NCBI GenBank assembly: GCA_043801855.1 | Contig: JAZDLQ010000103.1 | Location: forward strand, 1,834-65,833 | From: an archaeon | GTDB lineage: Archaea > Nanobdellota > Nanobdellia > Woesearchaeales > GW2011-AR15 | Length of the DNA stretch: 64,000 nt | Direction: 5' to 3' | Shown here: positions 15,301-40,878 of the stretch, one piece after another | Layout of the letters: the number at the start of each line of letters is the position of its first letter | Numbering within the stretch: position 1 is the first letter of the stretch | Notes under the pieces: model-generated | The model's database searches: none | What the model saw: the letters and a program-made list of their open reading frames with translations, nothing else | Told to the model about the DNA's origin: nothing | Made by a program: the position numbers and the translations under genes

Positions 15301-18300
15301 GGGTTACACAGAACTCAATGTAACATTCAATTATCCAACCCATTATATATATAGCAGCGGCGTTGATAAGTGGGAGGCATTCAGGAACGGAGAAGATATT
15401 AATATAAGAAACGTTGGATTTGATGTAGTATGGCCTTATATGAATAACAGGTATATTCTGACAGGTGCGACAAATTTCACGTTTAATGTAAGCTCTGGAA
15501 AATATAATACACCAATGACATTAAAGCTGAAAAACCATTTTTCTGGAAATACAAAGACTTTATCAACATTAATGACAGCCCCAAATTCTGATTGGAAAGA
15601 ATTTTCATACGATCTTGATGATGCGGTAGAGGGTCTTGGCTTGTCAAACGGCCCTCATGATGTTGAATTAACTCTGGAAGATGGCTCAGCACAGCCTCCG
15701 AAGATGTATTTCTTTATTGACATTTTCCCAGATCAATACAATATGTGGGCATGGACAGACAGATGGGAATACAGGACAGGAGAGCAGATGACAATTAATA
15801 TTGACATATTTGATATTTTATCTGGCTGGCAAAAACAGTCTCCGGATAATGTTTCACTTGAGTCATTATATGATTCATTCAGGCAGCCGGTGTCAGGAAG
15901 CCTTGGTTGGACTCAAGGGAATAATTTTGCAAATCTAACAATTGGAAGCAGCTGGGTAACAGGTAATTACCATGCTGAGCTAAAGCTTAATAAGAGCGAT
16001 GTGCTTAGGACAGTTCCATTTGACTTTTATGTCAGGGGAAATGACAACTTAAAGCTATTCTGGCAGCAAAACAAATGGGATTATTCATCAACAGAAACTT
16101 ATCAGATATCAATTGATGCAAGAGACAAAGGCCTTGCTGCTGTTGGAGTTCCCGTTACATTGGTAGGATTTGAAATGCGGCCCGAAAACTGGAATGACAC
16201 TCCGACTCCAGTAGAAATTAACGGGGCATATAATTTCTCAAACAACAATGTTACTGACGCAACCGGAAGAATAACATTTAGGTTAAATATTTCACAGGCG
16301 CAGCTTGGCAGTGGAGGATATAGCGCAAGAGTAAATGTTGGCGGCCAGCTTGTATGGCTTGACTTTAATGTGAGAACTTATCAGGTAGATGCATATCCTG
16401 AAGAGTGGGAATATGGCATTACAGATACAATTGAGATTAATGCAAGGGCAAGAAACATTGATACTTTTGCGCCAATTAATGAAAACGGAAACGTAACAAT
16501 AATTAAAATAAGAAGGCATGAGCAGGGAAACTGGATGCCGCAGGATATTCCACTTGAAAGCTTTGGAATTTATGATGCATCAACTGATGTTTTTAATGGT
16601 GAAGCATTGATAGAAATGTCTGCAAATCAGACTGCCCTTGCTCTTGAAAAAGCTTATGATTTTGAATTAGAGCTGCTGATGAATCTGACAGGGAGTGGAG
16701 TATCCAAAGGATATGTATGGTTCAAGCTTTCAAACTCAGATAAGCCGGCAGCAACAATTGTTGATAACACTGGATCTGAACCGGATGCGTATTTTGCAGG
16801 CCAGAATTATACACTGAGAGTAACTGGTGCAACTTCTGCAACACTAAGAAATATGTGGGGCCCGCAGTCTATGAATTATAACAAGGCGCTTGTTAATAAT
16901 AGCGGAACTTTGCAGACAGATTTCTATAGTCCGCAGTCTCCTGGAATGTATACCCTTGAAATAGAGATAAGGCGATCAGAAGGATTTCCTGAATTCATCT
17001 ATCAGGATTTCCAAATTGGCGGAGACACACAGTTAGACCTGTGGCTTGAGGAGTCATCAGTTGTTCCTGAAGTCAATTTTACAGTAGGATTATTTTTGAT
17101 GGGAAAAGGAACTGATCCATTTTGTAATCCTGAATATGGCTGTAATCGACCAATGGATAACTGGTTTGGTCCGCTGGGAAATAAGACTGTAAGGCTTACT
17201 GCAATAAAAGACCTCGATACATTCACCTTGATTAACAAGACCAATCTGAATATTGCCGCAACAACTAGTGACTTTCCTGACTGGATGCTCGTTGCAAACA
17301 CTCCAGGTGAGGGATGCGGCGGGTTTGATACAGAGCAGAATTGCACGGATGAAGGCTGCAGCTGGATTGTTGATGGGTATTGCGAGCCTAAATTCGATGG
17401 ATGTATTTACGGCGACACAAATACCTGCCAGAATGTTCACGGTTCTGATTGTGTGTGGAATATTGATCACTGCCAGCCTAAGATGTCTGGAAACTGCCAA
17501 TACGGAGATAGCGGCACATGTGAATCCGTTGATCATGCAGCAGATTGCCAATGGATTGAGCAAGACGGTCACTGTGAAGGAGAATATGATACGAGCCAGG
17601 ATAATCAGGGGCAATTCATTTCACAAGGTGAAGAGCCTGGAAGAGCTACTTTCAACCTTCATCCAACCATTCTTAACCTAACAGCAGGCAAGAGTTATGA
17701 TATAATCTTTAGCTATATTAGCGATGATGGTGAAGAAACTGAAGGAAAACTTGCAATACAGGTTGAAAAATTCCATGTCGCAATTTCAAGAGGCGAAGAA
17801 AATCTTGCAGCAAATACTTTACAATATGTATGGATGAAAACAGCTAATCTATACGGCGCTCCAATTGCTAACTGCACAATATCTTTCAGCGCATTATATA
17901 GCGCAAAAGACTATAAGCTTGTGAAGACTTTAAGCATCAGCGGCAACTCAAGCACTGAAGGCAACTATATCTTTACGTACACGACACCAAGCCTTCCCGG
18001 AGAGTATCTTGTTGAGGGTCAAGTGACATGCACTGTTGACAGTGTGCCGGTGACGCAGAAGATTGCATATTTTGTAGATGTCAGCGCAAAGAATTTAGAA
18101 GTTGACATGAAGACAAGGTTCAAGGAAAATGAAAACATCAAAATACTTATCACAACAAAGGATAGGATGGGCAATGCAATTCCTCAAAGGCTTGATATTA
18201 ACTTGTATCATGACAGGGAAGACTATCCTGCGCCAATATATTCACTTGGCGGTTCAGATTGCACAGTTCTTGATGCAAACCAGGCATGGGATTTAAGGAC

Positions 18301-21300
18301 AGAACAAGTTAGCGAAACAAATAACAGGATGGAAATTTCTACTGATGAGACAGGAAAACTAGAGCTAGAGCTTTGCGCCATGCCAAATGGCGCTTATATG
18401 ATAGACATCTTTCCATTGCTTGATTTTGCAATGATGGATGAAGGTCCAAAAACAGAAGGCAAGGGAGATAACTTTGGCTTTTTTAGCGATTTCATGGTAG
18501 GTCCAGGAGAAGTAATAATTACAACAAATTTAACATATATGGTAGGTGATACTGTTGTGCTGAATATATCTGCAACTGATGATAACAACAACCCACTTAA
18601 TGGAACACTTGTTGCATCAGAATCAATCCAGGAAATATATAGCCAGAATGGAGAAACAGATATACTCGTGCATCAGAATGATTCCATTGACCTATCATTG
18701 ACGGGCGGAAGCATCCTATTACAATATGTTATCCCGCCAAACGGCACTTATGAAGAGAATGATTCTGTTGTTATGGATATCAGGGCTGCTCCTGTTGACG
18801 GAAGCATTATGCTTGAAGATAACCTAGGGGAAAAATACTCTTTTAACAACCTGCTCTATACAATTAAAAACAGCAGAATTTCAGAGTTAAGTGTTTCACA
18901 AAGTGTTAAGGCAAACAAGCTGATTAATGTATCTGTGAGAACTGAAAACACCAACCGCTACAAAGTGGAATTCGGCATATTTTTCTTAAAAGACAACACT
19001 AATAAGGAAAAGTCCTGGAAAGTTCAGGGCGGCGTGTTCCTTGCAAATGTATCCGGCCAGAATTACAGCGAAGGTGTTTTTCAGGTACTTAGCCCAAAAG
19101 AGCCAGGGACATATTATCTTGCAATTCCAATCTATGCTCTTGGAACACCAATGGATGACATTGCAACAGCCACTGAGCTTTTGATAGCGCCTGTTGAAGT
19201 TACTCTGGATCTTGCAAATGTGTCTGGAATTTTAACTGAGCTTGACGGGTCAACAGCAATCCAATCAGCGCTTGTAAGGATAGGTAAAAAGGAAGTATAC
19301 ACTAATTCAACAGGCGGATTTGAAATGCTTGTTCCAAAAGGCAAAGCAAGTATAGAAATTGAGCGAAAGGTTAACGGCGAATTAAAGCAGACAATGAAGA
19401 CTCTTGAATATGATTTTGTGAATGACACTGTAGTTGATGTTAATTTCTATGGCTTTTTGCTAAATGGCACGCTTCAGCAGACCATATTTAATATCACCAG
19501 CCCAAGTACAGACTTATCAACTATGAAGATAAGGATAAATGTATCTGTAAATAACACTGGCTACCAGAACTTCACAAACTATACTATCAAGGCAGTTGCA
19601 AGCAGCGGAGAAGAGATAAAAATTGAAAGTGTTGAGCCTATTGAAAAAGAGTATGTGTTTTTCAGGAACCTCTATGCAGGCTTTGAGACAGGCAGCTATG
19701 AACTTAATGTTAAATTCAAGGCAGAATACTGGAACAGCTCTTCTTATGTTTTGGTTAATAATATAGAACTGAATTCAACAGTAGGAGCAGTCCTTGAAAA
19801 ATCTTATGAAGTTGAGACATATGCTGTAGCAGGTGATTCTCTGGACAATGATGGAGACTGCTCTGGAAACAGAACCAATGCTCCGGATTGCACACCCCAA
19901 CAAGGAACAATTGGTATTTGTATTGATGAGGAAGAGAATAACAATAAAGATGATGACTGTGACGGAAAGATTGATGAAGATCTTGAAGGCATGAATTATT
20001 TTGAATGGTGCGGAAATGGTTTTTGCGCAGGAAGCGAAGTGTATAATTGCTTTGAAGATTGTGCAACAGGCTATTGCGGAGATAATGTCTGCTCTTCTAC
20101 AGAAACTTATATGTGCGTTGAAGACTGCGGCGGAACAAACTGCACGCCGTTAAACACATGTGCAGGCGATGGTTCAGCATATTTCTGCAACAACTGGGGA
20201 ACCCTTGAGCCTGCAAACTGGTGCCAGTCACAGTGTAATTCTGATAATTGCTGGGCTTGTTCTACTGAAGAGTGCGTAAGCAAGGGATGCACTCTTGGCA
20301 GCGAAGGGCAGAATAGTTGGTGTTATAAATTAGAAGTATGCGGTGATAATTCATGTCCTGCATGCACTTCATTTAGCGCCTGCGATGCAACTTCATCATG
20401 CCAATGGGAAGTTGATTCATACAGCCCAAATGGCGGATGGTGTGAAAGGCCATGGAACTGTGACAATGAATGCGCTGCATGCATGGATCAGTCAAGTTGT
20501 GATGCATCTACTGCAACAATGGGAGAGAGTGGATGTGCTTGGAAAGTTGAAGGTTTGGGTTCATGGTGCCAGTGGAATATGTCTTACGCACCACCTTCCG
20601 GAGGAATGGGCGGTATCATTGAAAACCTATGGGTAGACTCAAATTTCTCAAAAGGAGATTATCAGGCTCTTGAGGATTGGCAATGCTATTCTGACTATTG
20701 CGGCGTAGAAAACCAGGCAGGAAACTACTATATTATGCTATCAATGGGAACAACAAATGTTGATATTAAAGTAAACGGAGCATATTTTGCGACAATAAAT
20801 AATAGCAACGGCAACTGGGGAAAGAAATGGACTAATACAACATATGCATTTTCTAACGGTACATATTTAATCGAAATCTTTGATAAAATCGGGCCTGATT
20901 ACGTTGCATGGAACGTCACATTTGGCGACCAGACTGGAATTGGAAACATCATAATAAATACTATGGGAAACAGCAGCAGTAACAAAATAGCTGATGCATA
21001 CAATGAATCTGGAAAAGAAGTTTGTGATGGAGAGGGTAACTGCTATCTTGTAACTGGAGTAGGAATATCTGGAAATTATTATGTTACTGTTGAACTGTAT
21101 CAGGGAGATAGTATCAATGTAACAGTTAAAGACAGCAACAACAACCAGAATATCTATGCATTGAATAGTATCCCAAGACATGGTTATTACAGTACTCCTG
21201 CAATAAGTTTCCAGAACAACAAACAATACATAATTTACGTTCAGGATAATGTAAATACTGGTGTTGAGCAGTTCTGGGCTGTTGGTGTTGGTTCATGGGT

Positions 21301-21652
21301 TAGTTCGCCATTCAGATATAACTTAATGCCTATATCAGCAAGCCCAATGTGTGTTGAGAACGGCTCTGTTGCAACAGTTGAATATGCAATTACTAATACA
21401 GCATATAAGGATTCATTGTTTAATGTGACTTATGCATTTAATACAACAACCGGGATTAATACTTACGATCAGCTTGTCACATCTGTTGATTATGGGATGC
21501 CTCCAAATTTCTTGGCGACTCAGTTTTACAATCTGAATATTTGGTCTGCTGGTTCCTCATATAAATTAAATGTGACTGTTAGAAACAGCGAAAATCCAAG
21601 CGTAAACCAGAATTATACATGGATTATTAATGCAGAAGCATCTTGTCCTTAG
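12365..21652 (+). CDS. Giant secreted/surface protein (at least 3095 aa): tandem Ig-like/CARDB-like repeats, carboxypeptidase-regulatory-like domain, Cys-rich modules; no membrane anchor
   Basis: One uninterrupted ORF. There are dozens of repeats of about 90-110 aa ending in G-x-Y...V patterns. Cys-rich blocks lie at about 17306-17595 and 19830-20620. It has no signal peptide of its own; the frame is open upstream to 12017 and contiguous with 11492-12016. No C-terminal TM segment. Confidence 0.85.
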   Translation: MKDSSNNEQTIKGYFTVMGLDVSVKLIEKRPYPTGDIAEFDITVKNLETGALLTHNSTLYLVEIESNGKLYDTTTAVIAENSDTTKTSLLTFLVPNFADGNYFLKIKATNGGKVGKGTEFIEISNTEIYAELSDNFGNYRNQFKPGELAKITVSSNVNLSYVNLSVYDKGNNIKSTANATASAAGASITFNVPVAQDGYYAELTIITQSGSSVKRQVWFTVQNYFSFLDVKDLNNNHRFVNQQGSEFLAEINVVDITSGQNVDVSSFTFKINKIVNEETNAEYTNFKATRNTTYTDASTGRVTYNVIPPSLPNGIYRIEYTIVNTLGESFSGNGWFGISAFGVTVSTYDSTGQQKRGFAAGSNINVSVTLSNSYNGTATIVREFFSDVTFNVLNGNGSAVLNASSGQIPSQSGFYGFGVEVENTDGNKGYGEGFFEIKSLNFKSITARSNAKFASNALIIADIVMEKAGELVNETNATLSRLVRQRDGAALSASSLSSLSDSFGRSTINITASSLEKGFYFAELKAVKGTDTTYGGFGFEVVEDKVSITLSDTDRIFSQTENIEISVLVTYQNDTPKNNVTVNLTSFLNFNTWSTVAVNKQATTSTSGVATFSVSAANYNPARYAPVINIPGMANAIVGFGNSEFEVKPFSTTIVFSEGKDYFDTDDTITINVSVTGSVTVSAVVTDKAGNAVNVDYSYSNNVLTLNNDLDPGEYFVEVTITQSTSTVSKTLWFQVISPEIHLQPLPNPNYQETDTINFDYTVFTISSNGWALANATVNITAIKNLWQGTEEEVGVLFNATEEDSYAFDLTSYALEKGDYLLVFEVIGNPNFENTLYFRISKDVSFSASSNVASNNVSINVTTTGFGSPQILLEGYTNFESFTYTLVGGTPVSAANALLSLNGLSNGFYQANIKVTDGAENYYFNTFFDVRVKDVTIDAPGEAFVGEPVQFNITATSAGVFWVIDPFTQNIVQKTQVSPGYTELNVTFNYPTHYIYSSGVDKWEAFRNGEDINIRNVGFDVVWPYMNNRYILTGATNFTFNVSSGKYNTPMTLKLKNHFSGNTKTLSTLMTAPNSDWKEFSYDLDDAVEGLGLSNGPHDVELTLEDGSAQPPKMYFFIDIFPDQYNMWAWTDRWEYRTGEQMTINIDIFDILSGWQKQSPDNVSLESLYDSFRQPVSGSLGWTQGNNFANLTIGSSWVTGNYHAELKLNKSDVLRTVPFDFYVRGNDNLKLFWQQNKWDYSSTETYQISIDARDKGLAAVGVPVTLVGFEMRPENWNDTPTPVEINGAYNFSNNNVTDATGRITFRLNISQAQLGSGGYSARVNVGGQLVWLDFNVRTYQVDAYPEEWEYGITDTIEINARARNIDTFAPINENGNVTIIKIRRHEQGNWMPQDIPLESFGIYDASTDVFNGEALIEMSANQTALALEKAYDFELELLMNLTGSGVSKGYVWFKLSNSDKPAATIVDNTGSEPDAYFAGQNYTLRVTGATSATLRNMWGPQSMNYNKALVNNSGTLQTDFYSPQSPGMYTLEIEIRRSEGFPEFIYQDFQIGGDTQLDLWLEESSVVPEVNFTVGLFLMGKGTDPFCNPEYGCNRPMDNWFGPLGNKTVRLTAIKDLDTFTLINKTNLNIAATTSDFPDWMLVANTPGEGCGGFDTEQNCTDEGCSWIVDGYCEPKFDGCIYGDTNTCQNVHGSDCVWNIDHCQPKMSGNCQYGDSGTCESVDHAADCQWIEQDGHCEGEYDTSQDNQGQFISQGEEPGRATFNLHPTILNLTAGKSYDIIFSYISDDGEETEGKLAIQVEKFHVAISRGEENLAANTLQYVWMKTANLYGAPIANCTISFSALYSAKDYKLVKTLSISGNSSTEGNYIFTYTTPSLPGEYLVEGQVTCTVDSVPVTQKIAYFVDVSAKNLEVDMKTRFKENENIKILITTKDRMGNAIPQRLDINLYHDREDYPAPIYSLGGSDCTVLDANQAWDLRTEQVSETNNRMEISTDETGKLELELCAMPNGAYMIDIFPLLDFAMMDEGPKTEGKGDNFGFFSDFMVGPGEVIITTNLTYMVGDTVVLNISATDDNNNPLNGTLVASESIQEIYSQNGETDILVHQNDSIDLSLTGGSILLQYVIPPNGTYEENDSVVMDIRAAPVDGSIMLEDNLGEKYSFNNLLYTIKNSRISELSVSQSVKANKLINVSVRTENTNRYKVEFGIFFLKDNTNKEKSWKVQGGVFLANVSGQNYSEGVFQVLSPKEPGTYYLAIPIYALGTPMDDIATATELLIAPVEVTLDLANVSGILTELDGSTAIQSALVRIGKKEVYTNSTGGFEMLVPKGKASIEIERKVNGELKQTMKTLEYDFVNDTVVDVNFYGFLLNGTLQQTIFNITSPSTDLSTMKIRINVSVNNTGYQNFTNYTIKAVASSGEEIKIESVEPIEKEYVFFRNLYAGFETGSYELNVKFKAEYWNSSSYVLVNNIELNSTVGAVLEKSYEVETYAVAGDSLDNDGDCSGNRTNAPDCTPQQGTIGICIDEEENNNKDDDCDGKIDEDLEGMNYFEWCGNGFCAGSEVYNCFEDCATGYCGDNVCSSTETYMCVEDCGGTNCTPLNTCAGDGSAYFCNNWGTLEPANWCQSQCNSDNCWACSTEECVSKGCTLGSEGQNSWCYKLEVCGDNSCPACTSFSACDATSSCQWEVDSYSPNGGWCERPWNCDNECAACMDQSSCDASTATMGESGCAWKVEGLGSWCQWNMSYAPPSGGMGGIIENLWVDSNFSKGDYQALEDWQCYSDYCGVENQAGNYYIMLSMGTTNVDIKVNGAYFATINNSNGNWGKKWTNTTYAFSNGTYLIEIFDKIGPDYVAWNVTFGDQTGIGNIIINTMGNSSSNKIADAYNESGKEVCDGEGNCYLVTGVGISGNYYVTVELYQGDSINVTVKDSNNNQNIYALNSIPRHGYYSTPAISFQNNKQYIIYVQDNVNTGVEQFWAVGVGSWVSSPFRYNLMPISASPMCVENGSVATVEYAITNTAYKDSLFNVTYAFNTTTGINTYDQLVTSVDYGMPPNFLATQFYNLNIWSAGSSYKLNVTVRNSENPSVNQNYTWIINAEASCP

Positions 21653-21663: not shown

Positions 21664-22842
21664 ATGAAAAAAATAGTAATAGCCGTTTTTTACTTGTTTG
21701 TTTTAGTTTTTAGCGCATCTGCTGCAACTCTTTCATGCCAGCAGATAAGTGAAACAAGCCAAAGTATTCCTCAATTTTCGAGTAGCACTATTGAGATAAG
21801 ATGCAGCGCGTCAGGAGGAACAGTAAGTAATATTCAAATAACTCCAAATAGCAATCCTTCAACAGGATTAACTATTACAAGCAGCCAGACTATCAGCAGT
21901 TCGATATCTGATCAGTCAAGCAGTACTGCAAAGTGGAGTGCAACCGGCGATTCGCCAAACACTTACACTGTTTCTTATACTGTATCAAGTGATGGCACAA
22001 ACTCATGGAGCGGCGCCTCCACTACAACAGTTAGTGTTCCTTCACCTGCCCAGCTTAGCGTTGAATATGTTCTGCCTCCAAGTATCTTTGCACCGGCAGT
22101 TGAAACGCTTGATTTCCAGATAACAAACATTGGAGGAACAAGTGCCACAAACGTGAAGATGAAATTAAATAATGGCTCTCTTTACACATATCCAACCTCA
22201 ATTGAAGCAGGAGCATCAGCCTCATACAGCTGGACAAATTCAACTGGATTTAATGTATCTGGTGAATACACAACTTATGTTTATATTGCAGATACATTGC
22301 ATGACAGCGTAACAGCAACAGTTTTGACAGGAGAGGAAGGCATAAATGCAACAAGCGGCTGGAGCCTTATAAGTTATCCAAAGCAGCCTGATAATACAAG
22401 CGTTGTCCATGCAGTTGAAGACATATCTTCTATCTTTACTATAATTTATAGATATGATGGTGGCGTCACATGGAAATCTTATGACGGCCCTGGTGGCTCT
22501 CCTGACACATTAACAACAATATCCTCTGCAAAAGGTTATTGGCTTAAAACAACTCAGTCAACACAGCTGAATTTTACAGGAACAGAGGTATCAAGTATGC
22601 AGATAAATCTAACAAGCGGCTGGAATCTAATAGGATATCCGAAATCTACAACTACTAATTTAACAACTACAATGGCAGATATACTTAACAATGTAGATAC
22701 TATTTTCAGGTTTGATGGCGGTGTCACATGGAAATCTTATGACGGGCCTGGTGGTTCTCCCGACACATTGACAACACTTACTCCTGGAAAAGGTTATTAT
22801 GTAAAAATGAATAATGCAGATACTTTATCAGTGATAAACTAA
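21664..22842 (+). CDS. Secreted CARDB-like protein with two C-terminal GWNLIGYP...PGKGYYVK repeats (cassette 1, gene A)
   Basis: I prefer the ATG at 21664 (MKKIVIAVFYLFVLVFSASA signal peptide), which is preceded by GAGGTGA 6 nt upstream; the track start 21643 is TTG. A CARDB-like segment (LDFQITNIGGTSATNVKMKL) is followed by two repeats of about 75 aa. Confidence 0.8.
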   Translation: MKKIVIAVFYLFVLVFSASAATLSCQQISETSQSIPQFSSSTIEIRCSASGGTVSNIQITPNSNPSTGLTITSSQTISSSISDQSSSTAKWSATGDSPNTYTVSYTVSSDGTNSWSGASTTTVSVPSPAQLSVEYVLPPSIFAPAVETLDFQITNIGGTSATNVKMKLNNGSLYTYPTSIEAGASASYSWTNSTGFNVSGEYTTYVYIADTLHDSVTATVLTGEEGINATSGWSLISYPKQPDNTSVVHAVEDISSIFTIIYRYDGGVTWKSYDGPGGSPDTLTTISSAKGYWLKTTQSTQLNFTGTEVSSMQINLTSGWNLIGYPKSTTTNLTTTMADILNNVDTIFRFDGGVTWKSYDGPGGSPDTLTTLTPGKGYYVKMNNADTLSVIN

Positions 22843-23275
22843 TAGGTATACAGTAAGAAAAAGGATATAAAAAAATGAAAATCAAATACGGCTTAAACTT
22901 TTTATCATATCTTGTAACAGGCTTATTGATAATGGTCCTTGTATCAGGGAACATTCAGACTTCATTATCAGATTCTGGAACAGGCGTCAGAGTCATAACC
23001 AGTGGATTGCTTGTGTCAAATGCAAATCTTACTGTTTTGATATTTACTGATCCTGATGGAGGAACTCCTGTATACAATGAGACTTTTGTAAATTCAATAA
23101 TGAATGGCAGCTGGGGGGTAATGCTTGGTGAAAACCCTTCTATTCCGCTTAATCTGGAATTCAACAGGAAATACTATAAGGATTATCTTATTAACGATGA
23201 AAATGTAAGTTTTACAAATCTGACTGGCTCAACTGTTGACAGGCAGTTTTTCTACAGTCCAATGGGTGAAATTGG
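22800..23275. repeat. Copy 1 of a near-identical segment of about 480 bp, spanning the gene A 3' end, the intergenic spacer and the gene B 5' end
   Basis: Aligns with 25503-25979 at a constant offset of 2703/2704 nt. It includes AAAATGAATAATGC...TCAGTGATAAACTAA...GTAAGAAAAAGGATATAAAAAAATGAAAATCAAATACGGCTTAAACTTTTTATCATATCTTGTAACAGGCTTATTGATAATG. Roughly nine in ten positions are identical by eye. Confidence 0.85.
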
Positions 23276-24776
23276 TCGTGATTCAAATTCTTCAGGACTT
23301 CATTCAACCGCAATAGGGTATGAGAATAACGCTTCAGGCGATTATTCAACAACTATAGGCAGGAAAAATCTGGCGAATGCAAGCTATGCTTTTGCAGCAG
23401 GTTATTTAAGCAACGCAACAGGTTATGCATCCTCTTCAATCGGCTGGACAGCACGAGCTTCAGGAATTGCATCATTTGCAGCAGGAATGAACACAGTTTC
23501 TTCTGGAATTGGAGCCTCTTCTTTAGGCTCAGATACTATTGCAAACGGGCATTATTCAGTAGCTTCAGGTTATTTTGCACAGGCTTCAGGTTTGGCATCA
23601 GAAGCATTCGGGTATTATGCAAAAGCAACAGGAGATTATTCAACAGCAGTTGGCAACTTTGCAAAATCACATGGGATTTACTCTTTTGCATGGGGTGGAT
23701 CCAATTGTTCAGTTGCCTCTTCTTCATGCAATAATACTGCACAGAATGCTTTTGCTGTCTATGGTAGCGTCTGTGTTTCAAATGCGACAAATGCGTGCCA
23801 GGCCAAAGGAGATGGAACAATTAGCGCAGAACAAATATGCTTAAATGGAAACTGCAGGACAATCTGGTCAACTCAGGGTGCAAATTATTCATGGGATACT
23901 GTTTCAAATGTGACTGCTGTTGCACTTGGAGTAAATACAAATGCAAGCGGGACTAATTCAACTGCACTGGGCATGGCAACAAATGCAGAAGGGCTTGGCT
24001 CATTTGCAGCAGGGAAAGAAACACATGCATCAGGGATTGCAGCAAGTGCAATGGGTTTAAACTGCACAGCATCAGGATGGTATTCAACAGCATTAGGTAA
24101 GGATTCAAATGCAGTAGCCTTTGGCTCTCTTGCGGCAGGGTATGGCGCAACTGCAGGCTCATACTGGGCTGACTATGCAGCTGTTGCCCTTGGAATGTAT
24201 ACACAGGCGCATGGTCCATATACAACTGCGATGGGCTATAATACAAGAGCAACAGGCAGTGCAGCAACAGTAATGGGAAAAGACACTCTTGCGACAGGGG
24301 ATTATTCAACTGCTGCAGGATACAATACGTATGCAATATGGGAATCCTCTTTTGCTATTGGTGAAGGCACAATTGCAGGCTCTTTGTATAAAGGAAAAGC
24401 ATTGGCAACAGGTTATTTCACTCATGCAGCAGGCAATATTTCAACAGCACTGGGCAGCTATGCTAAATCTTATGCTGATAATTCATTTGCATGGGGAGGA
24501 AGCAACTGCACAACAACAGCATCATTTTGTAATGCAACAAAGAAGAACACATTTGCAGTATTTGGGAATTTATGTGTGGCCAATGCAACAACAGTATGCC
24601 CTGAAATAGCCGATGGTACAGCATATTTTAGCGATGCAATGCAATTGCAGCCAAGACTAAATCCACCATCTGCATCTGCAATAGGCAAAATTTATTATGA
24701 TTCAGATCTTAATAAAATATGTTTCTATAATTCGTCATCATGGGTGTCAACTGATGGAGAGACAGTGTGCAGCTAA
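22875..24776 (+). CDS. Hep_Hag/YadA-head-like repeat protein, two tandem repeat-plus-cap modules (cassette 1, gene B)
   Basis: 633 aa. An N-terminal hydrophobic segment (MKIKYGLNFLSYLVTGLLIMVLVSG) and a conserved domain of about 110 aa are followed by 14-residue repeats of the type S-x-A-x-G-x-x-x-x-A-S-G-x-x. The module SFAWGGSNC...FAV(Y/F)G..CV.NAT..C occurs twice. C-terminal tail: GKIYYDSDLNKICFYNSSSWV. Confidence 0.8.
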   Translation: MKIKYGLNFLSYLVTGLLIMVLVSGNIQTSLSDSGTGVRVITSGLLVSNANLTVLIFTDPDGGTPVYNETFVNSIMNGSWGVMLGENPSIPLNLEFNRKYYKDYLINDENVSFTNLTGSTVDRQFFYSPMGEIGRDSNSSGLHSTAIGYENNASGDYSTTIGRKNLANASYAFAAGYLSNATGYASSSIGWTARASGIASFAAGMNTVSSGIGASSLGSDTIANGHYSVASGYFAQASGLASEAFGYYAKATGDYSTAVGNFAKSHGIYSFAWGGSNCSVASSSCNNTAQNAFAVYGSVCVSNATNACQAKGDGTISAEQICLNGNCRTIWSTQGANYSWDTVSNVTAVALGVNTNASGTNSTALGMATNAEGLGSFAAGKETHASGIAASAMGLNCTASGWYSTALGKDSNAVAFGSLAAGYGATAGSYWADYAAVALGMYTQAHGPYTTAMGYNTRATGSAATVMGKDTLATGDYSTAAGYNTYAIWESSFAIGEGTIAGSLYKGKALATGYFTHAAGNISTALGSYAKSYADNSFAWGGSNCTTTASFCNATKKNTFAVFGNLCVANATTVCPEIADGTAYFSDAMQLQPRLNPPSASAIGKIYYDSDLNKICFYNSSSWVSTDGETVCS

Positions 24777-24777
24777 A

Positions 24778-25545
24778 ATGAGACAGGTTATTCAAAATAC
24801 AGCATTGCAGATTTTCTTTTTATCATTGTTGCTAATTATTTCACTAAGGACTGTTTATGGAAATTCAACATCATATAGTATTGCTTTTTTAGAAAACGGC
24901 ATTGCAGATTCAGTGGCAGCAAGCAGTGCAAGCTATTCTGTTGAGTCTGCAAACAACAATGCTGAGCCTGCTGGAAACATGAGTTCAGCAAGCTTATATG
25001 GTGAATTTGGAAAAAAACAGCTCATTCAGGAATCAAATAAAATTATTGCTCTGGCTTCTGGCTGGAATTTAATCAGTTTTCCGCTGGGATTAAAAAATGA
25101 GTCCATTACAAATGCAGTATCTGGCATCTCACCATCATTAAGCATTGTTTACAGGTATGACGGCGGAGTTACCTGGAAAAGCTATGATGGCGCTGGCGGT
25201 TCTCCTGATACACTCTCATCAATTGCACCAGGAAAAGGTTATTGGGTTAAAATGACAAATTCAGAAGACCTTGAAAACATAGGTTATGTGCTGGATTATG
25301 TATCCATTCCGCTTTCATCTGGCTGGAATTTAATTGGCTATCCAAAATCAGCAAGCAGAAGCCTGACTGAAGTTTTTTCAAATATTACTGATAATCTGGC
25401 GATAGTTTATAGATATGACGGAGGAGTTATATGGAAAAGCTATGATGGTCCAGGAGGTTCACCAGATACATTGACAACCTTAAGCCCTGGAAAAGGATAT
25501 TATGTGAAAATGAATAATGCTGATACTTTATCAGTGATAAACTAA
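24778..25545 (+). CDS. Secreted protein with two GWNLI(S/G)(F/Y)P...PGKGY(W/Y)VKM repeats (cassette 2, gene A)
   Basis: The ATG at 24778 lies just after the stop of the preceding gene and gives MRQVIQNTALQIFFLSLLLIISLRTVYG. The track start 24697 would overlap the upstream gene by 80 nt. The C-terminal 16 residues (GKGYYVKMNNADTLSVIN) are identical to those of 21664-22842. Confidence 0.8.
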   Translation: MRQVIQNTALQIFFLSLLLIISLRTVYGNSTSYSIAFLENGIADSVAASSASYSVESANNNAEPAGNMSSASLYGEFGKKQLIQESNKIIALASGWNLISFPLGLKNESITNAVSGISPSLSIVYRYDGGVTWKSYDGAGGSPDTLSSIAPGKGYWVKMTNSEDLENIGYVLDYVSIPLSSGWNLIGYPKSASRSLTEVFSNITDNLAIVYRYDGGVIWKSYDGPGGSPDTLTTLSPGKGYYVKMNNADTLSVIN

Positions 25546-25979
25546 CAGGTTATACTGTAAGAAAAAGGATATAAAAAAATGAAAATCAAATACGGCTTAA
25601 ACTTTTTATCATATCTTGTAACAGGCTTATTGATAATGTCCTTTGTATCAGGGAACATTCAGACTTCATTATCAGATTCTGGAACAGGCGTCAGAACAAT
25701 AAGCAGCGGGCAACTTGTGTCGAATACAAACCTTACTGTTTTAATATTTACTAATCCTGATGGAGGAACTCCAGTATACAATGAAACTTTTGTAAATTCA
25801 ATAATGAATGGCAGCTGGGGGGTAATGCTTGGTGAAAACCCTTCTATCCCATTGTATCTTGAGTTCAATAGAAAATACTACAAGGATTATATGATAAATA
25901 ATGAGAACGTAAGCTTCACAAACCTTAGCGGCTCAACAGTTGACAGGCAATTCTTCTATTCTCCTATGGGTGAGTGGGG
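25503..25979. repeat. Copy 2 of the near-identical segment of about 480 bp (see 22800-23275)
   Basis: Direct comparison of the two stretches; the intergenic spacer differs by a single 1-nt indel and a few substitutions. Confidence 0.85.
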
Positions 25980-27186
25980 ACGCGGGTCCAATGCCAGTGG
26001 TATCTATTCAGCAGCATTAGGTTATTATACTGTCGCCAGCGGTGGCTATGCAACCGCTATGGGTAATAGAAGCACAGCTAGTGGAATTTATTCAACAGCG
26101 ATGGGTAGTAATACAACAGCTAGCGCAGCAAGTTCAACAGCCATGGGCGGCGATACTATAGCTAGCGGTAATGTTTCAACAGCAATGGGCGGTTCAACTA
26201 CAGCGAGCGGCTTTCTTTCAACAGCCATGGGTTATTTTACTACAGCCAGTGGTTATGCTTCAACTGCGATGGGAGTTAGGACTAATGCCACAGGATATTA
26301 TTCAGTTGCAATGGGTTATGGAAGCAGTTCTAGCAGCTATGCTTCAATTGCAGTAGGATTTCAATCTAATGCTACAGGATATTATTCAACAGCAATGGGT
26401 GAAGTTACTGCAGCTAGCGGTTATGCTTCAACCACAATGGGCAGTAACACCAGAGCTAGTATGCCGTTCTCAACTGCAATGGGCTCTAATACTATCGCTA
26501 GCGGTGATTATTCAACTGCCATGGGATATGGGACTGAGGCAAGTGGAGATTATTCAACTACAGTTGGCTATAGAACAAATGCAAGCGGTCAATATTCCAC
26601 TGCGTTGGGATATGAAACTATTGCATCCGGATATGATTCTATTGCATTGGGCTATAAAACATTAGCCAACGAAAGTTACTCTTTCGCAATGGGAGATAGA
26701 ACCAATGCCACAGGAATTAATTCCATTGCAATGGGCACGGTAACTCAAGCAAGCGGATCTTACTCTACTGCCATTGGTTTTATATCTACTGCCAGCGGAC
26801 AGTCATCAACAGCTATTGGCAGGTATGTACATGCAAAAGGAGGATATTCAATTGCAATGGGATACGGTGCAAATGCAACAGCTGACTATTCATTTGCATG
26901 GGGAGGTCCTTCGTGTTATAATTTACCATCGAACTGCAGCAATACCAGAGAGGGTCTATTTGCAGTATATGGAGGCATGTGCATCGCAGATGCTAAAACT
27001 GTATGTCCTGACATTGATGATGGAGTAGCATTTGTTGATAAGGCATTCTTGTTAAATCCAAGAGCTACACCGCCTACAGGTGCTATGGAAGGAATGATGT
27101 ATTTTGATTCAGACATCCACAAGCCCTGCTATTTTAATTCAACTAATTGGGTGAGGTTTGAAAATTCAAGCTTAGTCTGTAGTTAA
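25579..27186 (+). CDS. Hep_Hag/YadA-head-like repeat protein (cassette 2, gene B)
   Basis: 535 aa. The first ~130 residues are nearly identical to those of 22875-24776. About 30 consecutive 14-residue repeats follow (ASG.YSTAMG..T.), then SFAWGGPSC...FAVYGGMCIADAKTVC and the tail GMMYFDSDIHKPCYFNSTNWV. Confidence 0.85.
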   Translation: MKIKYGLNFLSYLVTGLLIMSFVSGNIQTSLSDSGTGVRTISSGQLVSNTNLTVLIFTNPDGGTPVYNETFVNSIMNGSWGVMLGENPSIPLYLEFNRKYYKDYMINNENVSFTNLSGSTVDRQFFYSPMGEWGRGSNASGIYSAALGYYTVASGGYATAMGNRSTASGIYSTAMGSNTTASAASSTAMGGDTIASGNVSTAMGGSTTASGFLSTAMGYFTTASGYASTAMGVRTNATGYYSVAMGYGSSSSSYASIAVGFQSNATGYYSTAMGEVTAASGYASTTMGSNTRASMPFSTAMGSNTIASGDYSTAMGYGTEASGDYSTTVGYRTNASGQYSTALGYETIASGYDSIALGYKTLANESYSFAMGDRTNATGINSIAMGTVTQASGSYSTAIGFISTASGQSSTAIGRYVHAKGGYSIAMGYGANATADYSFAWGGPSCYNLPSNCSNTREGLFAVYGGMCIADAKTVCPDIDDGVAFVDKAFLLNPRATPPTGAMEGMMYFDSDIHKPCYFNSTNWVRFENSSLVCS

Positions 27187-27255: not shown

Positions 27256-27993
27256 ATGAAAACCAATTCAATAGTTGTTTTAATACTATTTTGTATTATT
27301 TTTACTTCTTATGTTAATGCAATTCCGCAAATTCCAACAGTATATTACGGTGTTGTGAGCGAAGATGGAGGCCCATTACCTGGGAAGGAAGTTATTGTCA
27401 AGGATTCATTAGGAAACAATGTATATAGCACTGATTTGATTAGTGATGCAGACGGGATATACAAGGCCAATGTCTTATGGGATGACTCTGAAACAATAGA
27501 AGATGAAGGCGTTAGCGAAGGAGAAAAAATATCCTTTTATATTAATGGGAATAAAATCAAGGATTTGACTGTTGGGGCAAAAGGAGCTTTTATAGAAAAT
27601 GATTTGGCAATTACAGGCGAGGAAATCAGTTCTCCTTTGTTTGAGCGTCCAAAAAATAGAAATGGCGAAATATCTCAGAATGATGCTGATGAAGAAGGAG
27701 TTGCAGGAAATCAAATAGACGACACCGGGCAAGCATCTAATCCAACTCAGCCAGATAATGTTGATTTGTTGCAGCCGCCTGAATCAGAAGGAAGCGGACA
27801 AAAGACTACTGATAATAGCAATTCCAATGTAAATGCCATAATATCAGAGAAGGAGTTGGAAAAAATTGCAGAAGACAATAAAAAAGTGGGTCAATTAGGA
27901 AATATCTTGGTTATAGCAGGAATTGTTATTGTATTGTTAATTGCTATCATTTATGTAATAGGCATATTTTCAAAAAAGAGGGCGGAAAAATGA
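27256..27993 (+). CDS. Secreted beta-sandwich protein with acidic linker and C-terminal TM anchor
   Basis: 245 aa: signal peptide, the domain IPTVYYGVVSEDGGPLPGKEVIVKD...GEKISFYINGNKI, an acidic low-complexity linker, then the TM helix ILVIAGIVIVLLIAIIYVIGIF and a KKRAEK tail. Confidence 0.7.
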   Translation: MKTNSIVVLILFCIIFTSYVNAIPQIPTVYYGVVSEDGGPLPGKEVIVKDSLGNNVYSTDLISDADGIYKANVLWDDSETIEDEGVSEGEKISFYINGNKIKDLTVGAKGAFIENDLAITGEEISSPLFERPKNRNGEISQNDADEEGVAGNQIDDTGQASNPTQPDNVDLLQPPESEGSGQKTTDNSNSNVNAIISEKELEKIAEDNKKVGQLGNILVIAGIVIVLLIAIIYVIGIFSKKRAEK

Positions 27994-30900
27994 GTAAGAT
28001 AACTAAAAAATTGTTGATATCTGTTTTTGCAGCATTAATGTGTGTGTTGTTTGCATTTTATGCAACAGCAGCAGGGCCAGGCAGCCCAACAAACTACAAC
28101 GGTTATGCAACCTGTAACGGATATGAAATTCCTGCAGGTGCCATTATATGGATGGAATCAGAAGGCAGAAATGTCTCAACTGACGGCTGGACAGATACAA
28201 CCAATTTTACTTATTATGATCCTACTCAAGGAACTCCTACAGATCGGTATTTTCTTCATCTTCAGTGGAGAGATATTGGCGACCCTCTTTTATATTATGG
28301 AGCGGATGATGGAGATCCTGTAACTATTTATGTCAACGGGATAAATGCATCTCTTTTTACTGCTGATGATTCTCAATCATCTGTTTTATATAACCTGTCT
28401 TTTTCAGATAGTGTTTCTCCTTCAAATGTATCAACACTTAGTGCACAAGAGCTTGCCGTGCAAAACCAGTCTGTTATTAACATCTCCTTTTGGGGGACAC
28501 GGGATAATCTCTGGACTAATTTATATTATCTCGTATATAGAGGAACAAGTTCATCTGTTACATTTGCCGATGGAACAAGAATAAATGCAACTCTTTTTAA
28601 TGGAACAGGTAGAATAACTATCAATGATACACTCCCAGCAAGAGGACAAACGTATTATTATGCAGTATATGCAAATGATACCTCTGGCAATCTTGGCGCA
28701 AGGGCAATATCAAATGCAGTGTCCACAACAAACCTTGTTCCTGCTCAAGTTACAGGAGGCGCTGCAAGCAGCAACAACAACAGCCTGAATATCACATGGA
28801 CTGCAGTAACAACGCACAATAACGGAACAGGAATTGGAGGAGATTTAGTTGGATATCATGTTTATAAAAATGTAAGTGATGTCTGGGTTCTTACAACTAC
28901 TACAACAAATACTTTCTATTACAACAACAGCCTGACAAACAACCAGCCATACCAGTTCAAGGTTGCAGCTTATGATTTGGATTCAAACGAAGGCCAGAAT
29001 TCTTCTGTTATATCAGGAACGCCAAGCGAGAGGCCGACAATAACAATGACAAGCCCGGCAAATTATCTATTTATCCGCTCTGGTGTAAGCTTGAATTTTT
29101 CAGTAACTTCTGGTGCTCTTCAAAATGTCTGGTATTCTCCTAACGGCGGTGCAACAAATTCTACTTTTGTCTCTCCTTATGGAATTGATACAACAGCATG
29201 GACAAACACTCAAAGCTATATTGTTGTAGTTGGAGCAAATAACACAAATGGCCAAAGCACAGTTGAAACATATAATGTAACAATTGATAATAATAAGCCA
29301 ACAGTCACAAACCTTGCAGTAAATGATTCTGATTCTATTGTTTCGTCAGGCGTTTCAATAAGGATTAATGTAACTTCAATTGATTTATCTCCATTTACTT
29401 CAATTCTAGTTGGAAACTCTACTATGGTAACTATGGCTCAGCTATCTGGAAACCATTATACAGCAATTACAACAGCATCTACACTTGGATGCCCAGGTAC
29501 AAACCAAGGTTGCAGAGTCATTGTTAATGCAACAGATTATGCTGGCAATTCAAATGATACTATTGCCCTATTTTTTACTGTTGATAATATTGCACCAACT
29601 GTTTCAAATCCATATGTAGTAGGCGGCTTAATCAACACAACTGATGATCTAGTCAGAGAAAACGATACAATCTCGGTTAATGTAACAGTTACAGACTCAA
29701 ATGCAATTTCATCAGTTTCAGTAAACAGCCAGCCAATGAATAGTGTAGGAAACAATAAATACAATTATACTGGAAGCGCGCTTGCTCTTTGCGGTGCATC
29801 TGATGGCACATGTACACTGACTTTTGTTGCAACAGATGTTGTTGGTAATATTAACAGCACAACAACAAAGGCAATCACAGTTGATGATTCTGCGCCAACT
29901 ATATCCTCTGTAACTATTTCAGATAATTACATTAGCAATAACACGAATGTTACTGTTACTGTTGCAGTTACCGATTCATTAACTGCAGTGCATAATGTAT
30001 CAGTTGAAGGAGTATTACTGACAAGCCAGGGAGGCGGTGTCTGGAATGGAACGCTTAATTTAACTGATGAAACAGTGGACGCAGTTGATGTTGCTGCATT
30101 TGATATTGTTGGAAACTCGGATACTGACAGCGCAACAACTTATACTATGGATAATACTGCCCCCTACATTAATTCAATTATTTTATCTGATTATTATGTC
30201 AGGAGCGGAACACCAGTTACAGTTACTATAAATGTAACAGATAATGCAATTAATACTGTGACAGCTGAGGGTGTAACACTCAATAACAGTGGTGATATAT
30301 GGTCGGGAATTATTACTTTGGCGCTGGGAGGGTCTCCAATTAATGTTGTTGCAATAGATAATGCAAGCAACCAAAGGACAAATAATTCAATAGGATTTTC
30401 AACAGATGATATCTCTCCTTACTATAACTCAATTGCTTTGTCTGATTCTTACGTCAGGCCAGGAGCAACAGTTACAATTACAGCAAATATTACTGAGAAT
30501 CATATGACAAGTGTCACTGCTGATGGAACATCACTGTCAAACAGCACAGCAGATATATGGACAGGAAGCATAACTCTTGGAGATGCAAGCGGTTACGTAA
30601 CTTTAGTTGCAACTGATGATGCAGGAAATACGAATACTAGTGTTTTTACAACATATACAATTGATTCTACAGCGCCAACATTTTCAATAACAACTCCAGA
30701 AGCTGACGGGATATATACAAATGCAGACGGAAACATTACTTTTAGCTTCATTGTTTATGACGCAAATATATCAAAAGTCAATGTATCTATAGATAATGGG
30801 CTTTATATGTATGGCAACACTACAAATGGAACACATATAGTGCAATTTACAGGGCTTTTAGCTGGCGAGCATTCGGCAGTATTTAGCGCAAGTGATGAAG

Positions 30901-33144: not shown

Positions 33145-33849
33145 ATGAATAAAAAAAAGATGGCGATTTTATCAATTATTTCTCTTTTTATATTTAATAT
33201 TATTTCAATTGTCTTGGGTAAATCTAACATATATTTAGGAATAGCGCTTATTTTTTGCATATTATATCTTATTGGAATTGTCTTTAAAAGAACAGTTATT
33301 AAAAATAAATTTGGAGCATTTTGGCTTTTAGCTTATGCCTATTTGCTGATATTTATACCTATTCTATTATCTTATTTTAAAATAATAAAATCTAATGAAT
33401 TCTTGTTTTTGTTTTTCATATTTTTTAGTGTTATTGCTTATGAACTTGAAATTGATCCAAGGTATTCAATAGTAATGGCTCTTTTAATGCTTTGGCTTGC
33501 CCCATTTTTAATGTCATTTGGTATGAGCGCATTAGCAGAAGAGACAGCAATAATTGTTTACTATTTTTTAATATGCGCTCTGGCATTGCAGGTAATTCAA
33601 TTCAGGCAAAATTCAAAAATCAATATTGACCTTGATAAAATCAAGCTTATATTTATACGAAAGAATAATCTTTATTATGCGGTTTTCTGGCTGATCTTTT
33701 ATTTTATCGCAGGATATTTTTTGCTAAGCCCTATATCATTAGCTCTTAGCCTGTATTTTAGCACAGTGTTTGGATTTTTTTATGGCGCAAGGCTTTTGTT
33801 GAAACATGATACTAAAAAAAGCATTTGGAAAGGACTCGACACTTATTAA
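33145..33849 (+). CDS. Hypothetical polytopic membrane protein
   Basis: 234 aa with about seven hydrophobic helices and no recognisable motif. It is the first gene of the same-strand glycan cluster. Confidence 0.6.
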   Translation: MNKKKMAILSIISLFIFNIISIVLGKSNIYLGIALIFCILYLIGIVFKRTVIKNKFGAFWLLAYAYLLIFIPILLSYFKIIKSNEFLFLFFIFFSVIAYELEIDPRYSIVMALLMLWLAPFLMSFGMSALAEETAIIVYYFLICALALQVIQFRQNSKINIDLDKIKLIFIRKNNLYYAVFWLIFYFIAGYFLLSPISLALSLYFSTVFGFFYGARLLLKHDTKKSIWKGLDTY

Positions 33850-35068
33850 GGCTGGAGCCATATTTTTTATTGCATCTGTGCTTGGCGCTGCACTTAATTA
33901 CCTGTATCACTTAATCATTGGAAGGATGCTTGGCCCTGAAAAATATGGGGTATTAGGAAGCCTATTTGCAATCATATATTTTATCACTTTTTTTTCAGCC
34001 ACCTTTAACGTGGTTATCTCGAAATTTTCATCACATTTCAGCGGAAAAAGCGAGATTAGGCGCTTGAAGCACCTAATAATAGGTGCAGCTGGAAAAATCG
34101 CGCTTTATGGGAGCTTATTACTTGTCATTTATATCTTATTCAGCCCTCAGATAGCGCATTTTATGAATATAAGCGATATTAACGGAATCATTATTGTTGG
34201 TGTAATGGCTTATTTTTCAGTAATTTTCTCAATTCTTATTGGCGCATTAAACGGCATGCAGCGTTTTGTTTGGCAAAACATATCTTCTTTTAGCGCAGTT
34301 TTCCTAAAATTCTCTTTAGGAGTCTTTTTTGTATATATTGGGTTTGGAGTATTGGGAGCACTGGCTGCAGTTCTTATTGGGATTGTTGTTGGGATAATGG
34401 TTGCAATAATTCCTCTATTTTTAATGCTGCGAAAAATAAAGGCAGAAAAATTTGACTCTAAAAGCCTGTATTTGTTTGCACTCCCTGTCTTTATTTCTTC
34501 ATCATTATTGTCTTTTATGATAACAATAGATGTCTTTTTGGTCAAGCATTTTTTTAGCTCAGCTGATGCCGGCCACTATGCAGCGGCAGGAATGGTTGCA
34601 AAAATCATCTGGTTTGGAAGCGGATTTTTTGCGTCTCCGATTTTTCCGATGATAGTTGAGCTAAAAGCTAAGAAAAAAGACCCCTCAAAAATATTAAGGA
34701 AAGCGCTTGCCTATACAGCAATCATTGCTGCGATAGGGATAACTGCATATTATGCAGCGCCAATTTTAATTGTTTCCACGCTTTATGGAGCTGAGTATCT
34801 GGCAATTGCTGAGTATATATGGATATTTGGCTTTGCGCTGGGCATTTATTCTATTATCAATGTGCTCGTTTTGTATAATTTAGCAATTGAAAAGTATAAA
34901 TACATCTTCATATTGTTTATTGCTGCTATTATTGAGTGCACAGGAATATATTTATTCCATAGCGAATTAATTGATGTAGTAAAAATAGTGCTTGCAGCAA
35001 ATATTTTTTTGCTTTTGGGTTTGCTTTTTATCAATCGAAAGGACATTGGGGTTAAAATTGCGCAATAA
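33806..35068 (+). CDS. Wzx-like oligosaccharide flippase (MOP superfamily polysaccharide biosynthesis protein)
   Basis: 420 aa with about 12 TM helices. The N-terminal pattern KAGAIFFIASVLGAALNYLYHLIIGRMLGPEKYGVLG is typical of polysaccharide-export flippases. Confidence 0.7.
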   Translation: MILKKAFGKDSTLIKAGAIFFIASVLGAALNYLYHLIIGRMLGPEKYGVLGSLFAIIYFITFFSATFNVVISKFSSHFSGKSEIRRLKHLIIGAAGKIALYGSLLLVIYILFSPQIAHFMNISDINGIIIVGVMAYFSVIFSILIGALNGMQRFVWQNISSFSAVFLKFSLGVFFVYIGFGVLGALAAVLIGIVVGIMVAIIPLFLMLRKIKAEKFDSKSLYLFALPVFISSSLLSFMITIDVFLVKHFFSSADAGHYAAAGMVAKIIWFGSGFFASPIFPMIVELKAKKKDPSKILRKALAYTAIIAAIGITAYYAAPILIVSTLYGAEYLAIAEYIWIFGFALGIYSIINVLVLYNLAIEKYKYIFILFIAAIIECTGIYLFHSELIDVVKIVLAANIFLLLGLLFINRKDIGVKIAQ

Positions 35069-38181: not shown

Positions 38182-38209
38182 TGTTAAAGTTCCTTTTCTG
38201 GAAGCCATT

Positions 38210-38599
38210 TTATTTTAATTGTTCAAAAAGATGTGTAATAATCTCCCTTATTATTGCTTTGTTTAACTCAATATAATTTTTGTGTATCATAAATCCCTCG
38301 TATGATATGCGATTTCTGTACTCTCTCATTTGCTGCAAAAATTGCCTCATCTGTTCATCTATTTTATTTTGTTTGGCAACATAATCAATAAGCTCTTGAT
38401 GAGCACCTTCTCCTTTTACTTTAACTCCTTCCCTTATCGTAATAGCCTCTATCAATTTGTGAACTACGTCATAGTAATCTGATAGAGTGTTACTTGGATA
38501 TTTTTCCATATCAGTATTGCTTAGTCTTTCTAGGGTGATCTCTGCCATCTTTCTTAGCGATTCTGATTTTTGCATATCTGGTTTAACTTTTGTAATCAT
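38210..38599 (-). CDS. HEPN-domain protein (toxin-like partner of the adjacent nucleotidyltransferase)
   Basis: 129 aa, all-helical, with a conserved Arg-containing helix (REYRNRISYEG). It overlaps the upstream MNT gene by 4 nt, the classic MNT-HEPN arrangement. Confidence 0.6.
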   Translation of the reverse strand: MITKVKPDMQKSESLRKMAEITLERLSNTDMEKYPSNTLSDYYDVVHKLIEAITIREGVKVKGEGAHQELIDYVAKQNKIDEQMRQFLQQMREYRNRISYEGFMIHKNYIELNKAIIREIITHLFEQLK

Positions 38600-40031: not shown

Positions 40032-40037
40032 AAGAAG

Positions 40038-40877: not shown

Positions 40878-40878
40878 A

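Follow-up and report, generated by a model that had tools for sequence, protein, structure and literature searches.

The 64,000-nt stretch of contig JAZDLQ010000103.1 analyzed here (the window) carries, between positions 21664 and 27186, a unit of two genes, designated A and B, that occurs twice back to back. The four genes are read as open reading frames (ORFs) with translations and are closely packed on the plus strand: A1 at 21664-22842 (392 aa), B1 at 22875-24776 (633 aa), A2 at 24778-25545 (255 aa), and B2 at 25579-27186 (535 aa). An initial annotation, made from the sequence alone, had described the pair A1/B1 plus A2/B2 as a tandem duplicate with these coordinates and lengths and with spacers of 32 and 33 nt between A and B in copies 1 and 2; all of this was confirmed, as was, by alignment, the constant offset of 2703/2704 between the copies. 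The two spacers differ in three places, namely two positions and a 1-nt indel. A GAGGTGA motif precedes A1, whose start lies 11 nt past the end of a 3095-aa gene (counted from its stop codon), and the A2 start at 24778 lies 1 nt past the B1 stop codon. The true start of A2 is uncertain: its frame stays open through the 81 nt (24697-24777) that precede the ATG at 24778, with alternative starts at 24754 or 24697, and the public gene call (P0002) begins at ATG 24754. Either upstream choice would make A2 overlap the 3' end of B1. Downstream of B2 on the same strand follow a 245-aa gene and a 1683-aa gene.

Both B proteins are built behind a shared head. The first ~132 residues of B are a signal peptide followed by a conserved β-sandwich domain of ~110 residues at the extreme N-terminus, called Bn here. 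B2 continues with about 15 stretches of YadA-head repeats (42-nt period) and ends in a cysteine-rich C-terminal module, while the order in B1 is signal peptide, Bn (residues ~26-132), YadA-head repeats, an internal and degenerate copy of the cysteine-rich module (C-module), YadA-head repeats again, and the cysteine-rich C-terminal module. The Pfam family YadA_head (formerly Hep_Hag) matches B1 with E = 2.7e-27 and B2 with E = 1.2e-57 over 15 stretches, and B2 also matches the BpaC head structure 7o23 (E = 1.7e-24). The Pfam scan returned YadA_head alone; no YadA-type anchor (YadA_anchor) was found in B1 or B2, whose C-terminus is instead the cysteine-rich, soluble-looking module. By tblastn the internal C-module copy of B1 lies at 23643-23819 (plus strand), with 56% aa identity to 24444-24620, that is, to the first ~59 residues of B1's own C-module, and it is 38% identical to the C-module of B2. 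This arrangement, two tandem bodies behind one head, shows an origin of B1 by internal duplication or fusion of body plus C-module. Because the internal copy is closer to the C-module of B1 than to that of B2, B1 gained its second body and C-module after the split from B2, which accounts for the difference between 633 and 535 aa that had been noted as a difference in the length of the repeat regions.

A1 consists of a signal peptide, a weak CARDB-like region (below the Pfam cutoff), and two C-terminal GWNLI...GKGYW repeat domains starting at 22354 (r1) and 22615 (r2); A2 consists of a signal peptide, a low-complexity linker, and two such domains starting at 25057 (r1) and 25318 (r2). Each C-terminus thus holds two copies of a unit of ~85 residues, SGWNLI(G/S)(Y/F)P...DGGVTWKSYDGPGGSPDTL...GKGYW. 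That the N-terminal halves of A differ was observed from the start and can be put more sharply: the N-terminal parts (21664-22341 vs 24778-25044) give no alignment between the copies, and homology is confined to the C-terminal double-repeat half, with the C-terminal 160 aa of A2 being 63% identical to A1.

When identity is read in 60-nt windows along a global alignment of the two units, the values are 92-100% within 22797-23155, about 75% in the flanks as far as 22737 and 23275, and 35-55% in the remainder. The step in identity at the A-B junction is therefore real, and uniform divergence along the cassette is excluded. Segment by segment, the copies are 74% identical over 22713-22794, 94% over 22795-22845, 97% over 22847-22991, 76% over 22992-23049, 98% over 23050-23143, 74% over 23144-23275, and 54% over 23276-23400; the whole stretch 22847-23275 is 87% identical to copy 2. 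The initial annotation had called some 480 nt (22800-23275) nearly identical. This holds for about 350 nt, the homogenized tract at 22795-23143 (93% identity), and overstates the case for 23144-23275.

Copy 1 of the tract, on the plus strand, begins 16 codons from the end of A1, crosses the 32-nt spacer, and runs through the B1 signal peptide to B1 residue ~90; copy 2, also on the plus strand at 25498-25847, takes in the 3' end of A2, the 33-nt spacer, and the 5' end of B2. Within it are three perfect runs, 22853-22934 (82 nt), 22939-22991 (53 nt), and 23082-23143 (62 nt), and one divergent patch of 58 nt at 22992-23049 (plus strand; partner 25696-25753), which carries five amino-acid differences. 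The copies differ at ~7% of positions, or 3% with the patch left out. The patch may be older sequence left in the tract, whether by patchy repair or between two separate events. The right edge at 23143/23144 is abrupt and falls inside a protein domain rather than at its border, and the tract ends are arbitrary in general, one lying within the A C-terminus and the other within the B domain, not at module borders. Beyond the right edge, the distal part of Bn (residues ~91-133, at 23144-23275 on the plus strand, with partner 25848-25979) is 91% identical in protein, and its synonymous sites are saturated.

Synonymous sites separate what the protein requires from what the nucleotides share. Amino-acid identity is 85-97% throughout B codons 1-132, while the proportion of synonymous differences (pS) climbs from 0.00 (codons 1-33) through 0.34-0.41 (34-99) to 0.90 (100-132), the last range having a nonsynonymous divergence (dN) of 0.07. 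In the gene bodies dN is 0.4-0.9 and synonymous divergence (dS) is saturated. A same-codon test was made at those positions where both copies specify an identical residue for which synonymous codons exist. The same codon is used at 82 of 92 such positions in the core (22795-23143) and at 24 of 61 in the flanks (22713-22794 and 23144-23275), a difference with Fisher p = 7e-11, where codon usage predicts ~0.46. Taken alone, 23144-23275 keeps 15 of 37 codons, about chance level. The two flanks together have 74% nucleotide identity with ~91% identity in protein. As the core boundaries had been picked after viewing the data, permutation tests were added: none of 200,000 permutations produced a stretch of identical codons at identical residues as long as the observed 43 in succession (maximum 33), and none of 300 attained the scan statistic. 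The identical-codon run reaches 36 codons into B, and identity resumes up to codon 90. Synonymous divergence in the tract is thus significantly below that of flanks equally conserved in protein, and the same-codon, permutation, and scan tests together supply the GENECONV-type signal that the initial annotation had named as a check on its claim of gene conversion. Near-identity that includes synonymous sites and a non-coding spacer indicates recent shared nucleotide ancestry in the core, the signature of gene conversion, whereas random synonymous sites in 23144-23275 and 22713-22794 point to purifying selection on protein and not to recent exchange, in flanks whose age reaches the limit readable from saturated synonymous sites. 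Exchange at the junction is accordingly supported by the ~350-nt core and by the A mosaic described below; about a quarter of the proposed conserved segment (23144-23275) is conserved at the protein level only.

The A repeats allow a test by grouping, since they supply four units, where B offers only two copies. The DGGVTWKSYDGPGGSPDTLTT segment of A1 repeat 2 (22713-22794, plus strand; partner 25416-25497) is conserved between the copies as protein only, and it is 87% identical to the equivalent segment in A1 repeat 1 at 22455-22540; the informative sites of its first 63 nt group by gene and not by repeat position. Across all four units, eight informative sites in the DGGVTWKSYDGPGG segment (the first 63 nt) pair A1r1 with A1r2 and A2r1 with A2r2, whereas in the last 40 nt ten sites follow repeat position, joining the two r1 units and likewise the two r2 units. 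These classes of site never interleave, so that the repeats form a mosaic with incongruent phylogenies; the chance of so perfect a separation of 8 and 10 sites is ~2 in 43,758 by our own hand count. The A repeats thus show intragenic conversion. The AlphaFold2 (AF2) model of the double repeat is confident (predicted local distance difference test score, pLDDT, 92.6), and a search of the PDB returned no meaningful match to it, with E ~0.02-0.04 at best and template modeling (TM) scores far below 0.46 among the matches listed. Its sequence relatives are found at the C-termini of diverse secreted proteins. On one metagenome contig (L049:91-4291) an ORF with an A-like double GWNLIS domain overlaps the end of a 1208-aa surface protein (CARDB, Peptidase_C14) and repeats that protein's C-terminal DGDGTPEHTT in another frame, which points to a frameshift and to large secreted proteins as the usual carriers of the A-type module, at their C-terminus. 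On the same contig the following gene (4296-4685) resembles the N-terminal part of the window gene at 27256-27993.

The head of B belongs to a large family. Exact look-ups of B1, P0001, and P0002 gave no record. When residues 1-135 of B1 were searched against 5.8 billion proteins, one relative was returned; pattern scans yielded 13 genome loci, all archaeal, and 35 metagenome loci, 48 in total, the closest relative of the B domain among them being 61% identical in protein. The genome loci, mostly of DPANN lineages, come from Pacearchaeota, Nanoarchaeota, Altiarchaeota, Diapherotrites, and unclassified archaeal metagenome-assembled genomes, three of them labelled Methanosarcinales. In every locus Bn follows a Sec-type signal peptide at the very N-terminus, and an alignment of 27 sequences gives the signature LSDxGT...GNLT...NGSWNV...LE(Y/F)G..Y(Y/W)KDY.IN directly after that peptide. 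Searched with a profile, 1.84 billion cluster representatives yielded 1024 matches at E <= 1e-3 and 620 at E <= 1e-10. The Bn-headed proteins are 100-4152 aa long, and almost every one of the top 150 matches places the domain near the N-terminus, at about residues 4-205. No Pfam model exists for Bn, and the source names are solely "hypothetical protein". Its AF2 model is a β-sandwich (pLDDT 87) for which solved structures, phage proteins included, gave no meaningful match (best E ~0.02-0.04, TM <= 0.46 among the matches listed).

The bodies behind Bn are mutually unrelated and fibre-like. Among 60 members the Pfam matches are Peptidase_S74 (4), phage Collar (2), Gp10_C, BclA_C, Chlorovirus glycoprotein repeat, and YadA_head (1). 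The endosialidase-chaperone domain (Peptidase_S74), Collar, Gp10_C, and BclA_C are typical of trimeric phage fibres. A scan of 2.9 million viral contigs with the domain alignment found no member of the family, and the PHROG matches of B are confined to the repeat region plus a weak C-terminal match to a virion structural PHROG; a viral origin was rejected on these grounds. At about 30 of the 48 loci a gene of 46-68 aa lies directly upstream on the same strand, often overlapping the start of the Bn gene (for example L010:9775-9942, L012:2851-3021, L001:9765-9962, L025:5106-5258, L020:2686-2886, and ~25 other loci). These small genes are of ribbon-helix-helix (RHH) type (KKFLLEIPEEIWNKWKDTVPRSISLNKALIELL, or CopG-type reaching the Pfam cutoff) or of winged helix-turn-helix (wHTH) type, and some reach Pfam cutoffs. 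Judged by gene order, small gene and Bn gene form a putative conserved regulator-fibre pair. In the window no such gene lies upstream of B; A occupies that position. Neither the pairing of A with B nor the tandem duplication has so far been seen in any other genome.

It would appear likely, taking these results together, that the A/B units are an old tandem duplication encoding surface fibres, with a layered junction produced by purifying selection and local gene conversion and with no sign of dedicated machinery for shuffling. On this account a two-gene unit for secreted, probably N-glycosylated surface proteins would have been duplicated in tandem long ago. Strong purifying selection would then have held the B N-terminal domain and the A repeat motif (dN ~0.03-0.09, dS saturated), and a single fairly recent non-reciprocal exchange between the direct repeats, or a few of them, would have homogenized ~350 nt (22795-23143 with 25498-25847). 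Conversion and selection together may keep the docking end uniform while the bodies diverge. The locus is recombination-active in general, given the conversion among the A repeats and the duplication within B1. The homogenized segment is therefore mainly a product of recombination and constraint, and also offers a passive substrate on which the 2.7-kb unit could be deleted or amplified.

Some points weigh against this account. Since dS is saturated in flanks and bodies, the whole of Bn may have been homogenized earlier, in which case the flanks would be an older layer of conversion. On the left side of the core, constraint on a translation-initiation or promoter region of B could act on the final ~50 nt of A and on the spacer. 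Surface location, trimeric state, and adhesion are deduced from domain homology, signal peptides, and sequon enrichment. As to the domain of life, no tRNA or rRNA was found in the window; a DPANN-type archaeon is probable as the source from where the relatives of Bn occur.

Selection on the nucleotides themselves, through a B promoter or 5' untranslated region, translational coupling, mRNA structure, or an antisense gene, would also leave the core nearly identical. The most perfect run (22853-22934) does cover the spacer, the ribosome-binding region, and the B start, and in other genomes a small gene sits ahead of the Bn gene in tight coupling with it, so that expression may depend in part on the 5' junction. 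A promoter or initiation role for the ~80 nt upstream of B is possible. A scan for bacterial-type promoters and terminators returned counts equal to the shuffle expectation, but is unsuited to archaea. Identical synonymous codons, however, continue 36 codons into B and again to codon 90, far past any initiation region, and the abrupt edge at 23143/23144 fits the end of a conversion tract. An RNA element at the junction was rejected, since the fold predicted for 22795-22960 does not surpass that of shuffled sequence (z = 0.24) and Rfam gave no match at E <= 1. Under the tract in both copies there is an antisense ORF of 69 codons (22955-23164 and 25659-25868, minus strand), but a frame of at least 69 codons is open in just 6 of 44 homologous loci and the ORF misses the most conserved 160 nt; an overlapping antisense gene was rejected, and the frame is best seen as a by-product of nucleotide identity. 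Nucleotide-level constraint is thus a very unlikely source of the core as a whole. It is highly improbable that a metagenome assembler created the arrangement by joining strain variants or mis-resolving a repeat. The source does look like a metagenome-type contig (70,915 bp), and exact 82-nt repeats can confuse short-k-mer assembly, but the join between B1 and A2 (24776/24778) falls outside the segment that the copies share, and the two genes are read cleanly through it. The copies differ throughout their bodies and by the 1-nt spacer indel, which does not fit a collapsed or duplicated read path, and the assembled path would be the sole one to use all four gene bodies once.

The initial annotation had gone further and seen in the junction a possible recombination handle. 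In the full form of this view the handle is a dedicated part of a surface-variation system, at which recurrent exchange would swap A/B combinations or change cassette number and so vary the exposed, ligand-facing parts. In its favor, the junction does carry a conversion tract, the gene bodies differ greatly, and the locus holds other recombination products in the A mosaic and the B1 internal duplication. By what is established on short-homology recombination in prokaryotes, the perfect runs of 82, 62, and 53 nt would be long enough for homologous recombination. A parallel is offered by the tandem adhesin genes vompD-A-B-C of Bartonella quintana, which share a conserved 5' region and from which genes are lost during infection (PMC10936683). 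Against such a handle, both copies are full genes with start codon, signal peptide, and stop codon. The window contains no silent, partial, or truncated cassettes and only two copies of each module, so the silent donors of programmed variation are lacking, and the window ORFs that were scanned include no recombinase, reverse transcriptase, or invertible element. The tract ends follow neither gene nor domain borders, and the ~7% difference between its copies speaks against very recent or frequent exchange. Across relatives, where cassette number and order were to be compared, none of the 48 loci has tandem copies, a second head-domain gene, or an A-type gene paired with B (at least 3 kb being available upstream in 28 and downstream in 15). 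Nor is a conserved part joined to divergent ligand-facing parts specific to this locus: as Bn heads more than 1000 clusters with unrelated bodies, the combination of conserved head and variable body is a protein architecture, explained by protein function, and not a feature of the locus. A/B swapping or a change in copy number is conceivable for any 2.7-kb direct repeat, but the handle is unproven, and it is unlikely that the junction reflects a dedicated mechanism or serves as a recurrent exchange point. Old tandem duplication with selection and local conversion remains the preferred reading.

Under that reading, B1 and B2 would be exported, glycosylated fibres, probably trimeric, with a likely role in cell-surface attachment. 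Bn is probably the part by which the fibre docks, either to the envelope or to a partner, with the repeat body and cysteine-rich tip facing outside. N-glycosylation sequons number 22 in B1, where shuffles give 10.8, and are ~2-fold enriched over shuffles in B1, B2, and the neighboring giant proteins. The latter are secreted proteins that flank the A/B units on the same strand with minimal spacing (12365-21652, 3095 aa; 27990-33041, 1683 aa) and contain 80 and 76 sequons, 48 and 34 being expected. They have weak Ig-like and macroglobulin-like matches only, and the 3095-aa protein has a cysteine-rich stretch in its C-terminal third. Farther downstream lies a large glycan or modification cluster (33145-50875, and 50899-58430 on the minus strand). 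It holds a polysaccharide-biosynthesis protein of the Polysacc_synt family, several glycosyltransferases, an asparagine synthase, and four radical S-adenosylmethionine (SAM) enzymes, of which three have a B12-binding domain and one a SPASM domain; next to these, the opposite strand encodes two very large membrane proteins (GT-C, AftD-like; 1468 and 1041 aa). The window ORFs that were scanned include no phage genes, and the neighbors of the locus are housekeeping and glycosylation genes.

Partial gene conversion between tandem paralogues is a textbook mechanism and would not by itself surprise a specialist. What is new is an uncharacterized archaeal protein family of more than 1000 clusters, with no name and no Pfam model, rather than the recombination pattern. 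An attached life on host cells is presumed for DPANN archaea, the means of attachment being largely unknown, and this makes the Bn-headed proteins reasonable candidates for attachment fibres; a literature search on DPANN together with YadA found nothing relevant. A wider proposal, which we think rather unlikely, is that Bn-headed proteins are attachment fibres throughout the DPANN lineage, with the constant 5' module, signal peptide and docking domain together, acting as a portable homology block by which bodies are exchanged between paralogues or genomes in the manner of phage tail fibres, and with A as a fibre-specific partner; the tandem in the window would then have caught such exchange at one moment. 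Two diverged paralogues with a shared head are a natural pair in which constant and variable parts could be tested.

Four known systems invite comparison. Gene conversion, with conserved segments flanking variable ones, is also the mechanism at Neisseria pilE/pilS and Borrelia vlsE/vls. Those systems consist of one expressed gene plus promoter-less partial donor cassettes, whereas the locus here has two complete genes and no partial copies; a cassette system of the pilE/pilS type was rejected for want of silent copies. The trimeric autotransporter adhesins (YadA, BpaC, BadA) have a head-repeat region homologous to that of B, as the YadA_head matches indicate, but B lacks the C-terminal YadA anchor, has its own N-terminal domain and cysteine-rich tip, and likely belongs to a host without an outer membrane. 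The absence of the anchor led to rejection of B as a trimeric autotransporter. The vomp genes resemble the locus in being tandem genes of YadA-head type with a conserved 5' region, divergent bodies, and direct repeats able to recombine; they differ in that the locus has no membrane anchor, an archaeal-type genome, a two-gene unit (A plus B), a tract of ~350 nt, and no variation observed among isolates or reads. Phage tail fibres and spikes, like the Bn family, join a constant N-terminal module to a hypervariable fibrous body, and the family shares with them the Peptidase_S74, Collar, Gp10_C, and BclA_C bodies; B differs in its Sec-type signal peptide, in having no family member in viral contigs, and in the lack of a structural match for its N-terminal domain. 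The closest process is therefore the concerted evolution of tandem adhesin paralogues, and the closest architecture is that of the phage tail fibre.

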